A DNA stretch of 64,000 bases, taken from contig CAIKOD010000038.1 of assembly GCA_903828975.1 (NCBI GenBank), positions 3,187 to 67,186 on the forward strand, given 5' to 3'. The position numbers were made by a program, and so were the translations under genes. Under the pieces are notes generated by a model that did not search any database, was not told the origin of the DNA, and worked only from the letters and a program-made list of their open reading frames with translations. This document shows, in pieces, positions 8,181 to 59,325 of the stretch. Numbering within the stretch: the first letter of the stretch is position 1; each line of letters begins with the position of its first letter. The stretch is from an uncultured Methanomicrobiales archaeon (lineage in GTDB: Archaea > Halobacteriota > Methanomicrobia > Methanomicrobiales > Methanospirillaceae).

Positions 8181-8433
8181 AGCATTGTTGAAGCCCTCTC
8201 AAATCAATCTTGCAGATTAGTTATTCCAATAGTTAGTCACGCTCCCGGGGCTCATGGCCCGCCGCTGTGGCGACCCCGGTTGGGATAGGGATTGGCCATT
8301 ATTCTCTGAAATATTCAGTAATAATGAAGTTGAACCTTGCTCAAAGGATATCTTGCTGGGGTGGGACAGGGAGGGGGAAAACCCCCTCCTGTCTAGGTAT
8401 TTTATCTTCCTTTTTCAAAACACGCAGGGTTTC
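8181..8433 (-). mobile_element. MITE family 1, copy 1 (short body, reverse orientation)
   Basis: It starts 3 nt after the stop of the preceding gene. It contains the reverse-oriented conserved core (GCTCCCGGGGCTCATGGCCCGCCGCTGTGGCGACCCCGGTTGGGATAG) and the GGGAGGGGGAAAACCCCCTCC hairpin. Termini are AGCATTGTTGAAG / GGGTTTC. Confidence 0.75.
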
Positions 8434-8535
8434 CCATGAAACTGCTTGAACGAACCTAAAAGCAAGGAGATTATGAATGGGCATTTTCAATGGTTTGGGT
8501 GAGAACTCCCCGTTCATGCGTGTTTCAACAAAGCC
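8428..8535 (+). repeat. Two-hairpin module attached to the hairpin-A end of MITE copy 1
   Basis: TTTCCCATGAAA...GGGCATTTTCAATGG...GAGAACTCCCCGTTCATGCGTGTTTCAACAAAGCC. This is the same module as at 9233-9411, 27332-27446, 36698-36811, 41035-41139 and 47218-47326. Confidence 0.7.
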
Positions 8536-8985: not shown

Positions 8986-9411
8986 GGCTCTGTAGATATC
9001 CTTAAACGGGAAAAAAATTAACAGAACTGCTCATACAGGAGGTGTTTTACCCCTTCCCTGTCCCACCCCATTAAGATACTCTTAAGCAGGGTTTCAATCG
9101 ATTTATTAAATATTCCCGATGTTCCAAGACTTCATCTCTATTCCAACTGGGGTGCCTTTAGAGGCGGAGCGGAGCCCCAGGAACGTTGGAAAATTTCGGA
9201 ATAATCCTGAATTTAGTAAAATCCGGGTAGAGGATTTCCCATGAAAACAAACATGATGCCAAAAGGCCAGCAAGCAGACAATGAATGAAAATGCCAGGGG
9301 GGGATTTTAATATTAAATGCACGAACTGACCCCAATATAAGGAGATTTTGGACGATGCCTTTTCAATCGTCCGGGTGTGAACTTCCCGTTCATGTATGTT
9401 TCAACAGAGCG
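8986..9411 (+). mobile_element. MITE family 1, copy 2 (long form, partly decayed)
   Basis: GGCTCTGTAGATATCC...hairpin A (mutated)...core...GGATTTCCCATGAAAA...GTGAACTTCCCGTTCATGTATGTTTCAACAGAGCG. No clear TSD. Confidence 0.7.
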
Positions 9412-9489
9412 TGCTATGATCCGCGGGCTCATAGATGAGGATGAAAAAGCTGGGCTTTCAAGATTGCTACCTGAAGTTTTTCATACCAG

Positions 9490-9538
9490 CCGGATTAACC
9501 TAATTCACAAGACAGATTGAGAGGGTTTCAACAAAGCC
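9490..9538 (+). repeat. Solo right-end fragment of MITE family 1
   Basis: CAAGACAGATTGAGAGGGTTTCAACAAAGCC matches the right terminus of the family. No body is attached. Confidence 0.5.
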
Positions 9539-12701: not shown

Positions 12702-12914
12702 CCGGCGGCTATGAAAAACTCTGGGAAACCCTCACACCGGCAGGCTTTTCCTACTCATCTATGAGCCGATGGCTCACAGCACGCATACCAATACTGTCTG
12801 TTATCGGAACATCATGATCACTACACAGGAGATTCCCATGATGGAAACTATAATAGTTTCCCCGGTTGAGAGTCCTGAAAACGCCGATTGACCGTTAGTT
12901 ATATGGATTAAAAG

Positions 12915-18764: not shown

Positions 18765-19224
18765 GAGGTCGGGCTGTCCCCCGGTGTCACCCGGGAATTT
18801 TATTGAACCAGTGTAAAATATACTTTACATCGTTGGATCTTTTTGGACTATAATGTTTCTAGAAGGATTCCTTTTTCTGCCGCATTTCGCCATTTTCAGG
18901 GCCTGAAATACCAGCTGTACGGCAGATATCTCAACCAGGGATGTATTTTTTTTTTCGTTGTTTCGTGTGGGTAGATAACCTGAACTTAAGATATCAACAA
19001 ATAAAATCAAAAGACAATCAAACATTAGAATTTGAAAATCGCCCTAAATATTGGAAATACTCTGAACAATTGCGTCAACACGCAATGAACCGCCGCCGGG
19101 GAGTCCTTCGGGGGCGGCGGAACTCTCTTAATCGGGGTTTGGGGCGGAGCCCCATCAATTCATTTTTTTTACACTCTCATAGTTACCCAATCAGAATAGC
19201 GAAGAGCCATTTTTTTATGAAAAT

Positions 19225-19764
19225 TCAATCTATAGCAGAACCGGGAAGTGTTATATCGTGGTAACGACCGCTAACAAGGAGAGAACGTCCGCAAATTACT
19301 CTTTTTTTCTGTTCAAGCACGGTCATGCGGGGATAAAACCCTAACATCCGGTAAAATTTCCACGCACCTTCGTTCCCGTCGCCGACAGAGACCCGGTTCC
19401 TGACCGAACCGTTCGCGTCAAGCCATGCGAGTGCCCTGGTTACCAATGCAGAACCGATCCCCTGCGAACGGTATCTTTCTTCAACGAATATCGACTCTAT
19501 CTCGCCTGTTTTCTCCTCTGAAAGGGAACTGACACAGTACCCGATATACCGGCCTGATTCCGTGTCGAAAGCGAGGTCCAGTAGCAGAGACCCCGTCGAC
19601 GCGATCTTTTCAAAAAAGGCCTTCCGATCCTCGAAGATCATCTGCTCGTAGTGGTGCCGGAAGGTCCCCGCATTTGCGTGATGGTGTTCGTTGAGCTGAA
19701 CCCATAGAGGCCTGATCAGTTCGATGCTTGTTATGCCAGATGCCCGGTATTCAAATGGCGGCAT
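19225..19764 (-). CDS. GNAT-family N-acetyltransferase
   Basis: The acetyl-CoA binding motif RSQGIGSALV is followed by GFYP. The start is set at the internal ATG (MPPFEY..). Confidence 0.7.
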   Translation of the reverse strand: MPPFEYRASGITSIELIRPLWVQLNEHHHANAGTFRHHYEQMIFEDRKAFFEKIASTGSLLLDLAFDTESGRYIGYCVSSLSEEKTGEIESIFVEERYRSQGIGSALVTRALAWLDANGSVRNRVSVGDGNEGAWKFYRMLGFYPRMTVLEQKKRVICGRSLLVSGRYHDITLPGSAID

Positions 19765-20037
19765 TCTTACATCTGAATTAGGACATGAAAGGGGGATAAG
19801 GGTGCCGGTCAGGTGATGGCCCGTTATTGCCACTAAATTAAAATCCGGCAACGCCGGTTTGGTTGTACGGCCCGAAGATATACCGGTAGATAACTTCCGG
19901 AATATTATTTTGTAGCCATTTTGGCGAGTGTTGTAACCATCTTCCAGTTCAGCCTCCCAGAGGCATTTCGTAAACCATTTGATGTATTTCTACAAAGCCA
20001 ATAAAAAAAGAGGTGGTTCCAATCCGGTTTACCATTT

Positions 20038-24315: not shown

Positions 24316-24503
24316 ACGGTATATAGGGGGCTCCTGGTAGTCATAGCTATGCTACAAAAAATTAGTTATGGGCGTGGAATTTTGAAACTAAATTGTAAAG
24401 AGGAAATATGTATGTACCCGTCACCAGCCGGGTCTATCCAGAGCTTGGCCGACCAGTTAGTATGATCCGGACTAAACACCCAGAAGAGCATTGCTTATTA
24501 ATC

Positions 24504-24763
24504 GGCTTTGTTGAAACCCTTCGGTAATATAAAAAATAAGAGGGAAATACGAAGACAGGAGGGGGTTTCACCCCCTCCCTGCCCCACCCCCATTAAGATA
24601 TTCTTCGGGCAGGGTTTCCCGAAGGCTCATTAAATTCAGAGTATTGGGGGATAGTCTCTATCCCAACCGGGGCGCCACAGCGGCGGGGCGGAGCCCCGAG
24701 AACGTAAATACATTTCAGAATAATCAGGATTCTGGGTATCTATTATAGCTTTTCAACAGAGCG
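24504..24763 (+). mobile_element. MITE family 1, copy 3 (short form) with perfect 8-bp TSD
   Basis: GGCTTTGTTGAAACCC...CTTTTCAACAGAGCG is flanked by TATTAATC at 24496-24503 and at 24764-24771. It contains hairpin A (GGAGGGGGTTTCACCCCCTCC) and the GGGGCGCC..GGCGGGGCGGAGCCCC core. Confidence 0.85.
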
Positions 24764-24794
24764 TATTAATCCTTATTTCTCCTATCTGCCTGTA

Positions 24795-27331: not shown

Positions 27332-27696
27332 GGGCTTGTTGAAAACACATATGAACGGGCGCTCACAACCTGATCATAAAAAAGGCTGGTTCAAAATCTC
27401 CTTTTATTAGGATCCGATCAGGCATTTAATAGGAAAGTGCGGTGTTGTTGAAAAACACTCAATCTGTCTTGTTGATTGAGTTATCCCAACATTAGTCATG
27501 CTCCCGGCTCATTGCCCGCTGCTTTGGCGGCCCCGGTTGGGATAGAGATGAAGTCGTGGAACATCTGGAATATTTAAAAAATCAATTGAAACCATTGCTT
27601 AAGAGTATCTTATTGGGGGTAGGGCCGGGAGGGGGTGAAACCCCCTCCTGTTAATGTATTCCTCGTTTTTTAAAAACTATGCAGGATTTCAACACG
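27332..27696 (-). mobile_element. MITE family 1, copy 4 (long form, reverse orientation)
   Basis: GGGCTTGTTGAAAACACATATGAACGGGCGCTCAC (reverse of the hairpin module), then the reverse core, GGGAGGGGGTGAAACCCCCTCC and GGATTTCAACACG. It lies upstream of the MFS gene. No TSD seen. Confidence 0.75.
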
Positions 27697-27764
27697 TCCA
27701 TCTTTTAAAGAACATATGCTGCCCGGGCCATTCAATCATATCGCAAATCCGGGAATATCCAGGG

Positions 27765-36518: not shown

Positions 36519-36697
36519 CCTTTTTCACCTGTACATGCATATGTATGTGATGTCCAATCAATGTCGCTACCTGGATTACCACCGGACTGTTGATTCCAGT
36601 CAGGGGGCAAGGAGAAGGCCTTTGAGCAATGCGTCTAGGAGACCCCCCGATATCGGACGTGCTCATCCACGGGAAACCTAAAGGGAGCCAAGAAAGA

Positions 36698-36811
36698 TCG
36701 AGAGGGGTTCCCATGAAAATGCCTGAACTGACCCCAAAATAAAGAGATTTTGAACGAGCCATTTTCATTGTAAGGGTGTGAACTTCCCGTTCATGTATGT
36801 TTCAATAAAGT
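36698..36811 (+). repeat. Two-hairpin module of MITE family 1 (5'-truncated copy)
   Basis: GAGAGGGGTTCCCATGAAAATGCC...GCCATTTTCATTG...GTGAACTTCCCGTTCATGTATGTTTCAATAAAGTC. It abuts the stop of the flavoprotein gene. Confidence 0.65.
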
Positions 36812-36814
36812 CAA

Positions 36815-40780: not shown

Positions 40781-41139
40781 GGCTCTGTAGAAACCCAAAC
40801 CCTGCATATTTAAAAAAAGAGGGGATACGTAAGACCAGGAGGGGGTTTCACCCCCTCCCTGCCCCATCCCCGATACGATATTCATTGACAGGGTTCAATT
40901 GGGACATTCAAGGAAATTTCAGAAATTTGAAGATCATTCCTTATCCCAATCGGGGTCGCCAAAGCGGCGGTCCATGAGCCCCGGGAGCGTGACGAATTTT
41001 TGGAATTACCAATCTGCAAGATAGATTTGAGAGGATTTCCCATGAAAATGTCCGAACGAGCCGTAATCTAAAGAGATTTGAAACAGGCATTTTCATGGTT
41101 GGGGTGTGAACACCCGTTCATGTGTGTTTCTACAGAGCG
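40781..41139 (+). mobile_element. MITE family 1, copy 5 (long form) with perfect 8-bp TSD
   Basis: GGCTCTGTAGAAACCC...GTTTCTACAGAGCG is flanked by GAAAAATA at 40773-40780 and at 41140-41147. It lies between two convergent kinase genes. Confidence 0.9.
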
Positions 41140-44136: not shown

Positions 44137-44394
44137 GGCTCTGTAGAAATGCTCTGATAATTTACAGCGATTTTGGGTGTTCCGAAATTAACCCACGCTC
44201 CCGGGGCTCCGCCCCGCCGCTTTGGCGACCCCGGTTGGGATAGAGACTATCCAAAAATACTCTGAATTTAATGTGCCTTCGGGAAACCCTGCGAGAAGAA
44301 TATCTTAATCGGGGCGGGGCAGGGAGGGGGTGAAACCCCCTCCTGTCTTCGTATTTCCCTTTTTTTTATGACACCGAAAGGTTTCAACAAAGCC
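44137..44394 (-). mobile_element. MITE family 1, copy 6 (short form, reverse orientation)
   Basis: GGCTCTGTAGAAATGC...reverse core...GGGAGGGGGTGAAACCCCCTCC...GGTTTCAACAAAGCC. No TSD detected. Confidence 0.75.
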
Positions 44395-46968: not shown

Positions 46969-47326
46969 GGCCTTGTTGAAATCCTATATCAAATAAAAAA
47001 ATTAACAGAACTGCTCAGACAGGAGGGGGTTTCACCCCCTCCCTGTCCCACCCCATTAAGATACTCTTGGACAGGGTTCAATTGGGGCATTCAAAGAAAA
47101 ATTTCAGAGATTTGGAGATCATACCCTATCCTAACCGGGGCCGCCAAAGCGGCGGGCCATGAGCCCCGGGAGCGTGACTAAATTTTGGAATAACCTAATG
47201 TACAAAATAGATTGAGAGCATTTCCCATGTAAATACCTGATCGGCCCCTGATGTAAAGTGATTTAGAACGAGGCATTTTTCAATTGTCCGGGAATGAACT
47301 TCCCATTCATGTGTTTCAACAGAGCC
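46969..47326 (+). mobile_element. MITE family 1, copy 7 (long form), TSD matches 7 of 8
   Basis: GGCCTTGTTGAAATCC...GTGTTTCAACAGAGCC is flanked by TTATGTTC (46961-46968) and TTATGGTC (47327-47334). Confidence 0.85.
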
Positions 47327-48288: not shown

Positions 48289-48424
48289 ATGGAACTATTG
48301 GGATTTAACTAATTTCCGGTTCTGCTGATATCCCTGGCAGCATAACAGAACACCGGTGAAATTTATGGTCACAGGCCTTAAGTATGAAAATCGAATGGTT
48401 TTTCATGCCAGGTTAATAGAACTG

Positions 48425-48588
48425 TTTAGAAAGGAGGGGGATTTCGCCCAATCCCCGCACCACACCCGGAAAGATATTCTGTGTGCAGGGTTTACAACAG
48501 GGCTATTGAATATTTCAGAGAATAATTCACCCGCCTCTACCTCAACCGGGGCCGCCAAAGCGGCGGGGCGGAGCCCCGGGAGCGTCAG
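48425..48588 (+). repeat. MITE family 1, copy 8 (degenerate, truncated)
   Basis: A decayed hairpin A (GGAGGGGGATTTCGCCC) is followed by a well-conserved core, AACCGGGGCCGCCAAAGCGGCGGGGCGGAGCCCCGGGAGCGT. Confidence 0.6.
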
Positions 48589-51225: not shown

Positions 51226-51488
51226 CGCTTTGTTGAAACCATGCATATTTTTTTTTTGAAAAAAGAGGAAATACGCAGACAGGAGTGGGTTTCACCCCCT
51301 CCCGGCCACCCCCAATAAGATATCCTTTGGCAGGGTTCAATTGGGGGATTTTAAGAAAAATTCAGAGATTTTGAGATCATATCCTATCTCAACCGGGGCC
51401 GCCAAAGCGGTGGGCGGAGCCCCGGGAGCGTGACTAAATTTTTGACTAACCTAATGCACAATATAGGTTGAGAGAGTTTCACAAAGCA
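51226..51488 (+). mobile_element. MITE family 1, copy 9 (short form) with perfect 8-bp TSD
   Basis: CGCTTTGTTGAAACC...GAGAGAGTTTCACAAAGCA is flanked by GAAAGCCC at 51218-51225 and at 51489-51496. Confidence 0.85.
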
Positions 51489-59150: not shown

Positions 59151-59249
59151 TGATTTAGATGTTGGGGAAGGGTGTTGGTGTAAGGTCCCGTTACAGGAAT
59201 GGAACAATACGGCTCTCTAGAAATCATCTCACCGAATAGTACCGAACCA

Positions 59250-59325
59250 GGATTATTCCGGGATTTTCCAGCGCTCCCGGGGTCCCACCCCGCCGCCGGG
59301 GCACACCGGTCGGGAGAGAGACCCA
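59250..59325 (-). repeat. MITE family 1 core fragment (copy 10)
   Basis: GGATTATTCCGGGATTTTCCAGCGCTCCCGGGGTCCCACCCCGCCGCCGGGGCACACCGGTCGGGAGAGAG parallels the reverse core of copies 1, 4 and 6. The termini are absent. Confidence 0.5.

Follow-up and report, generated by a model that had tools for sequence, protein, structure and literature searches.

At positions 24504 to 24763 of the 64-kb window (the whole stretch of DNA analysed in this study) lies a 260-bp element that starts with GGCTTTGTTGAAA and ends with TTTTCAACAGAGCG, which direct reading shows to be 13-nt inverted termini, and an identical octamer, TATTAATC, stands on either side of it at 24496-24503 and 24764-24771. The element belongs to a repeat family with about 12 copies or fragments in the window, as detected using BLAST and an nhmmer profile, and together these make up about 3.3 kb, or roughly 5% of the window DNA. 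Four of the copies had been described with their flanks in a sequence-only reading of this DNA, and all four were confirmed when the letters were read directly. The copies at 8181-8535, 8986-9538, 27332-27699, 44137-44394, 36689-36812, 48413-48588 and 59211-59325, which came from the BLAST and nhmmer profile searches, are additional to that reading. The neighbours of the copies are ordinary genes, coding for PAS histidine kinases, an MFS transporter, a CNNM/CorC transporter, a peptidyl-prolyl isomerase, a beta-propeller protein and others, and no tRNA genes were found in the window. The features are as follows.

8181-8535, no strand: rearranged copy with the A core inverted relative to the B module; outer termini AGCATTGTTGAAGCCCT and ...TTTCAACAAAGCC
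8986-9411, plus strand: long-form copy with an internal duplication of ~65 nt
9412-9491, plus strand: C module, 79 nt, two hairpins, abutting the ...CAGAGCG end of copy 8986-9411
9492-9538, plus strand: short-form 3' end fragment with final terminus TTTCAACAAAGCC
12705-12781, minus strand: solitary C module (E = 1e-10), no recognisable MITE adjoining
24496-24503, no strand: left target-site duplication TATTAATC, identical to 24764-24771
24504-24763, plus strand: short-form MITE, 260 bp; left terminus GGCTTTGTTGAAACCCT, A module with conserved GC-rich core, right terminus ...TTTTCAACAGAGCG
24764-24771, no strand: right target-site duplication TATTAATC, by direct reading
27332-27699, minus strand: long-form copy; termini degenerate, relic of a short-form terminus in its interior; flanks agree at 4/8 positions
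36689-36812, plus strand: solitary B module (the right-end half of the long form)
40781-41139, plus strand: long-form copy of 359 bp, made up of the A module and a B module of ~110 nt; GAAAAATA on both flanks, 8/8
44137-44394, minus strand: short-form copy, 258 bp, with perfect termini; 84% identity to 24504-24763
46969-47326, plus strand: long-form copy, 358 bp; flanks TTATGTTC / TTATGGTC, 7/8
48413-48588, plus strand: internal A-core fragment without termini
51226-51488, plus strand: short-form copy, 263 bp; GAAAGCCC on both flanks, 8/8
59211-59325, minus strand: truncated copy with one terminus (GGCTCTCTAGAAA) and ~100 nt of the 3' part of the A module

When the terminus pattern was searched with up to 2 mismatches, 25 matches were found in the window compared to 4.7 +/- 2.2 in shuffled sequences, and the internal 24-mer CAGGAGGGGGTTTCACCCCCTCCC occurs 6 times where 0 are expected, so both counts exceed chance. 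The terminus-like match at 59211 belongs to the truncated copy, and other matches at 19987, 34659 and 59985 were set aside as solitary or chance occurrences. The copy at 51226-51488 has degenerate terminal bases (CGCTTTG...CAAAGCA), and the flanks of the rearranged copy at 8181-8535 (AAATAATT / AAATTTTT) agree at 6/8 positions.

The family is modular and evolves through the shuffling of its modules: there is a short form (A) and a long form (A+B), the core is inverted in some copies, and a C module of 79 nt may be added. The A module (~235 nt) consists of the left terminus, an A-rich stretch and a GC-rich core. Its elements are the hairpin CAGGAGGGGGTTTCACCCCCTCCCTG, a hairpin at the centre around CAGGGTT, GGGATAG-TCT-CTATCCC, and CCGGGG-TCGCCAAAGCGGCG-GGGCGGAG-CCCCGG followed by a short T-run. 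In short forms (~260 bp) the right terminus comes soon after the A module, and long forms (~358 bp) carry an extra B module of ~110 nt with its own terminus. Several copies have the A core in the opposite orientation to B, and the arrangement seen at 8181-8535 is also present at loci L005, L008, L028, L030, L047, L051 and L057. The C module has two hairpins and a 3' end of ...TTTTTCATACCAGCC (its sequence reads TGCTATGAGCC-GTT-GGCTCATAG..GTATGAAAAAGG...GGAGTTTTTCATACCAGCC), and it directly abuts ...AGAGCG MITE ends in about 20 copies with different end types and subtypes. Outside the window it was found at L005, L008, L009, L022, L024, L030, L034, L036, L047 and L053. At some of these loci the 8-bp duplication lies outside the combined MITE+C unit (L030, GAATGAAC, 8/8; L053, GGAAAAAC, 8/8; L034 and L024, 7/8). 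The C module could be either part of a MITE+C mobile unit or a separate site-specific mini-element.

Two other regions of the window are repetitive or palindromic. A 223-nt direct repeat (550-772 and 2735-2957; 80% identical, 2.2 kb apart) is unrelated to the MITE. Relative to the syntenic locus of MAG ELA380 (L045 805-914), whose flanks are 86-91% identical, the region 18863-19235 has about 260 extra bp, and it contains GC-rich palindromes including GGGGCGGAGCCCC, a motif shared with the MITE core. This region may represent another repeat family.

The left boundary of the focal element is also marked by metagenome contigs. Two of these (L003 and L004), 99.6% identical to the window, share this MITE copy and its right flank with the window but have a different left flank. 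When L003 1-74 and L004 1-72 were compared with window 24430-24503, the flanks switched exactly at 24504, which marks the boundary of the element. This suggests that copies have recombined, or that sequences were joined at the repeat during assembly. Small differences between these contigs and the window are clustered in the left half of the copy. Given the alternative left flanks of this one copy and the inverted cores in several others, the family probably mediates rearrangements. Short-read contigs that carry the neighbouring genes of the window terminate inside copies.

A scan of species-representative genomes with the 24-mer yielded 59 loci from at least seven MAGs labelled Methanomicrobiales or Methanoregulaceae. 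The nhmmer profile gave 112 hits in the window and the fetched loci (three metagenome contigs in addition to the 59 genome loci). Target-site duplications were then evaluated in 43 strict terminus pairs that enclose a profile hit in the window and the 59 related-genome loci. The flanking octamers agreed at 8/8 positions in 14 pairs, at 7/8 in 10 and at 6/8 in 4. When flanks were instead paired across different copies as a control, only 0.1% agreed at 8/8 and 0.6% at 7/8. Assumed repeat lengths of 4-7 and 9-12 gave 0-1 perfect cases, and because the signal appears at length 8 only, 8 bp is the exact size of the duplication. No two of the 14 perfect octamers are alike; they are rich in A/T and tend weakly towards GA....TC. 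Since they vary from copy to copy in this way, the octamers are target sequence that lies outside the repeat rather than a part of the repeat itself. No duplication is recognisable at 44137-44394 (flanks 3/8), and the copies at 27332-27699 and 8986-9538 also lack one.

An empty site was found as well. At L022 (MAG MFD00905) the occupied site reads CATATTTG-[MITE+C]-CTTATTTG, and at the orthologous site, in L026 (MAG MFD00032), the insert is absent and CATATTGG is present once. The two loci are syntenic and 87-90% identical on both sides of the insertion site. This comparison is one case, and the insert in it is a MITE plus a C module. At the syntenic ELA380 locus (L045) the differences from the window are not a simple presence or absence of a MITE. 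No empty site was found in the same population: wherever a metagenome contig encodes identical flanking proteins, it either has the insertion or breaks off within it.

The 43-pair flank test and the empty site bear out the earlier proposal that these elements have terminal inverted repeats, duplicate 8 bp of target and were inserted by transposition, and neither of the two outcomes that the sequence-only reading had named as refuting it was observed. The repeat is a genuine MITE family that duplicates 8 bp of its target: most copies have terminal inverted repeats GGCTYTGTWGAAA at both ends (the consensus extends to 17 nt), and the elements are small (260-360 bp), lack a transposase and occur as multiple dispersed copies. 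The copies differ from one another by 15-30%, which suggests that much of the amplification is old.

The structured core raises the alternative that the repeat is primarily a functional element of the host (a structured RNA gene, a terminator or a protein-binding site) that is kept by selection, with termini and duplications that are incidental or ancient. The GC-rich core (24556-24700 in the window and its equivalents in other copies) is better conserved than the sub-terminal parts, although the invariance of the first hairpin is inflated, since the loci were fetched with that exact 24-mer. The central CAGGGTT hairpin keeps its pairing while its stem sequences differ between subfamilies, and the single-strand folds are strong compared to shuffled sequences (z = -3.4 for 24504-24763 and z = -5.0 for 40781-41139). 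RNAalifold on a 73-copy alignment returned only a trivial structure, probably caused by gaps. No Rfam family matched the window at its gathering score, with chance-level hits only at E < 1 on one copy, which counts against a host element.

The genomic positions of the copies bear on the same alternative. Based on crude ORF calls, convergent genes flank 47% of MITE-bearing intergenic regions and divergent genes 8%, whereas MITE-free regions of the same loci are 18% convergent and 27% divergent (chi-square 32, p = 1e-7). The copies thus survive mainly downstream of genes, at their 3' ends. This enrichment counts in favour of a host element, and it is also what would be expected if insertions into promoters were selected against or if T-rich gene ends were preferred. 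There was no orientation bias with respect to neighbouring genes (20 vs 13, p = 0.3), which speaks against a host element, and an internal promoter driving downstream genes was rejected for this reason. The 8-bp duplications of unrelated sequence and the empty site are the marks of insertion by transposition, and any function would supplement the reading as a MITE and not supplant it. A repeat that is primarily a host element is therefore quite unlikely. A narrower proposal is that the GC-rich core (the CAGGAGGGGGTTTCACCCCCTCCCTG hairpin, the co-varying central hairpin and CCGGGG...CCCCGG with its T-run) is selected for a function of its own, possibly as a transcription terminator, an RNA-stability element or a small RNA, which the MITE has spread to gene 3' ends. 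This seems somewhat less improbable, but it is still doubtful. If it were true, the family would be a vehicle that rewires methanogen gene ends, and not a purely selfish repeat.

As a MITE family, the repeat requires a transposase from elsewhere. The sequence-only reading held that the elements are too short to encode one and that no autonomous element lies in the window, and tblastn of the window agrees. No transposase was detected with IS5-type queries (tblastn) in the window or in the 59 MITE-bearing loci. The same DNA contained no terminus pairs at a spacing of 0.6-3.5 kb with a duplication and no multi-copy transposase-like ORFs, so that no IS5-type element was found near MITEs in the 64-kb window plus ~470 kb of MITE-bearing loci (~530 kb).

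When metagenomes were scanned with the 17-nt consensus terminus GGCTYTGTWGAAAYCCT, 120 loci were recovered, and 31 elements of 0.85-2.2 kb are bounded by this terminus. An IS5-type transposase homologue is present in 21 of the 31, which span 0.95-2.0 kb, and 9 of these 21 have perfect 8-bp duplications. These are full-length insertion sequences with the same termini, a search for which had been recommended with the initial description, though none was seen in the ~530 kb of MITE-bearing DNA. The transposases (270-330 aa) match Pfam PF01609 DDE_Tnp_1, and 5 of 7 tested proteins (from L123, L163, L145, L153 and L229) score 164-230 bits against the NCBIfam model NF033579, "IS5 family transposase", for which the cut-off is 140. 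PGAP gives the haloarchaeal homologues the same name, and homologues about 39% identical to one such protein form the NCBI cluster "IS5 family transposase [Methanoregula sp.]". A copy of the transposase of this Methanoregula sp. cluster lies on a 1.15-Mb methanogen contig (L234/L241), with mcrA and mcrG 8 kb away. Its IS is 1009 bp long with ends GGCTCTGTAGAAAACCT / GGCTCTGTAGAATTCCT and the duplication AGAATACC (8/8). Another IS, of 1002 bp, is on a 2.9-Mb contig (L235) with the duplication CTTTTCTT (8/8), and other IS5-type elements with the terminus are in Methanobacteriales-like and haloarchaeal DNA. IS5-family elements with matching termini and duplication length are thus found in both methanogens and haloarchaea, including the archaeal order to which the MITE-bearing genomes belong. 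Their ~1-kb size and 8-bp duplications would fit the ISH1 group of the IS5 family.

The termini of the MITE and of these IS elements are identical at 15-17 of 17 bases and include the same GTAG/GTTG variants. The IS copies share this ~17-nt terminus, with each other and with the MITE, and nothing internal. Because only the terminus is shared, it is taken to be the recognition sequence of the family, and no IS seen here could have given rise to the MITE by simple deletion. No MITEs were found within 10 kb of four IS copies. One IS copy (L212 82-1046) has flanking octamers, GTTGTACT and AGTACAAC, that are reverse complements of each other, a signature of inversion between two IS copies.

From the GGCTCT start and the 8-bp duplications the ISL3 family had been suggested as the source of the transposase, and ISL3 elements do share both characters (ISArsp7, PMC6305408; the ISL3 elements and MITE of Microcystis, PMC11448079). 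However, an 8-bp duplication is common to several families and does not discriminate between them, and the published ISL3 ends (GGCTCTTCG; PMC6305408, PMC11448079) continue with TTCG where the present element has GTWGAAA, so that six bases are held in common. The MITE ends read GGCTCTG or GGCTTTG followed by TWGAAA, and are not of the GGCTCTT... type of ISL3. Additionally, all 21 of the 21 transposase-bearing elements with the 17-nt terminus are IS5-type (~270-330 aa, ~1 kb), an ISL3 transposase (PF01610) was detected in none of the 31 terminus-bounded elements (0.85-2.2 kb), and neither ISL3 model (PF01610, NF033550) gave a match at E ≤ 0.01. Mobilisation by an ISL3-family transposase is thus extremely improbable, and the earlier lead did not hold up.

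Other families with GGC... ends and 8-bp duplications have to be considered in the same way. In the IS1595/ISPna2 group the ends are GGCnnTG and duplications are 8 bp, and ISH6 has GGCTCTC ends and 8-bp duplications. Were the partner one of these, the IS5 match would be a convergence of short termini, and the finding of no partner in the MITE-bearing loci searched is in keeping with that. However, identity to the IS5-type ends over 15-17 of 17 bases together with the GTAG/GTTG variants far exceeds a 7-base signature, and no IS1595 or ISH6 protein was found among the elements bounded by the 17-nt terminus. An IS1595- or ISH6-type partner is accordingly very unlikely, and the IS5-family partner is preferred.

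The 17-nt terminus is not limited to MITEs and transposase-bearing elements. A scan of viral contigs with GGCTYTGTWGAAAYCCT gave chance-level results except for one haloarchaeal element (L104 9928-10843), which is 916 bp long with a perfect 8-bp duplication and an HNH endonuclease gene only. The ends of this element occur at 191 places in 112 haloarchaeal plasmids. A 613-bp element (L109 3005-3617) is present in Natrialba magadii pNMAG02 with the duplication ACTCACCC. A link between this element and TnpB was dropped when the TnpB element was seen to start ~430 nt from the terminus and not to abut it. Along with these two, the elements at L115 2701-3750, L120 3264-4517 and L189 2673-4294 have passenger ORFs, no transposase and perfect 8-bp duplications. 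The passengers in these haloarchaeal and brine-metagenome elements are an HNH endonuclease, a repeat protein and hypothetical proteins. In other metagenomes, further very small MITE families of 122-392 bp (L126 1408-1542, L208 1801-1922, L184 2348-2546 and L159 83-474) have the same termini and perfect 8-bp duplications around unrelated interiors.

The best explanation for the focal element, and one that we hold with good confidence, is that it is one copy from a MITE family of uncultured, Methanoregulaceae-like Methanomicrobiales and that it was moved by an IS5-family DDE transposase acting on ~17-bp terminal inverted repeats with an 8-bp stagger. In this model, a transposase from a ~1-kb IS located elsewhere in the genome, or formerly present, would recognise the ~17-bp inverted repeats (GGCTYTGTWGAAAYCCT) and excise the MITE in trans. 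The MITE would then be inserted at an A/T-rich target through an 8-bp staggered cut, and repair of the stagger would leave the 8-bp direct duplication. That the IS5 lineage is the actual mobiliser is suggested by the terminal sequences, and the movement itself would presumably follow cut-and-paste chemistry. Counting against this model are the lack of any partner in the ~530 kb around the MITEs, the lack of MITEs within 10 kb of four IS copies and the several copies that have no duplication. The partner IS may be rare or lost, since the 15-30% divergence points to an old amplification.

The family is a real but fairly ordinary genomic parasite, and it leaves the understanding of transposition unchanged. 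In practice, the family breaks short-read assemblies and needs masking or annotation in methanogen MAGs. Besides occupying ~5% of this window, it recurs in several uncultured Methanomicrobiales genomes. The 17-nt terminus also ties methanogen MITEs, methanogen and haloarchaeal IS5-type elements and haloarchaeal cargo elements into one transposase lineage across the Halobacteriota, and it provides an annotation handle for all of them.

No paper on MITEs in Methanomicrobiales was found in the literature. Kamoun et al. (2013; PMC3852290) catalogued archaeal MITEs, and their list contains elements partnered with IS5, IS1595 and ISL3 in Methanosarcina, Methanococcoides and Haloquadratum, which like the present family are short, non-coding, bounded by inverted repeats and partnered with IS elements. 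The IS5-partnered entries are from Methanosarcina and Methanococcoides and have duplications of 0-3 bp, and a MITE with an 8-bp duplication is from Haloquadratum (PMC3852290). None combines lengths of 260/358 bp, inverted repeats of 13-17 nt and an 8-bp duplication. The sole entry from the Methanomicrobiales, in M. hungatei (Methanospirillum), is 136 bp long with a 4-bp duplication (PMC3852290), and its features are unrelated to those described here. It is plausible, as first proposed, that this is a new family.

The ISL3-derived MITE of Microcystis aeruginosa (PMC11448079) is similar in its 8-nt duplication, its GGCTCT start and the fact that its partner was inferred from the ends, but those ends continue with TTCG and match ISL3 partners, whereas the present ends continue with GTWGAAA and match the IS5 family. 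The haloarchaeal cargo elements resemble the MITE in having the same termini over 17-30 nt and perfect 8-bp duplications, but at 0.6-1.6 kb they are longer, carry passenger ORFs and lack the GC-rich core. The archaeal IS5 elements with 8-bp duplications (L234, L235, L153, L175, L160 and others) have the same 17-nt terminal inverted repeat as the MITE, the same duplication length and the same phylum-level hosts (methanogens and haloarchaea). They differ in being ~1 kb long with a transposase, whereas the MITE is 260-360 bp long, has no transposase and has no interior in common with them.
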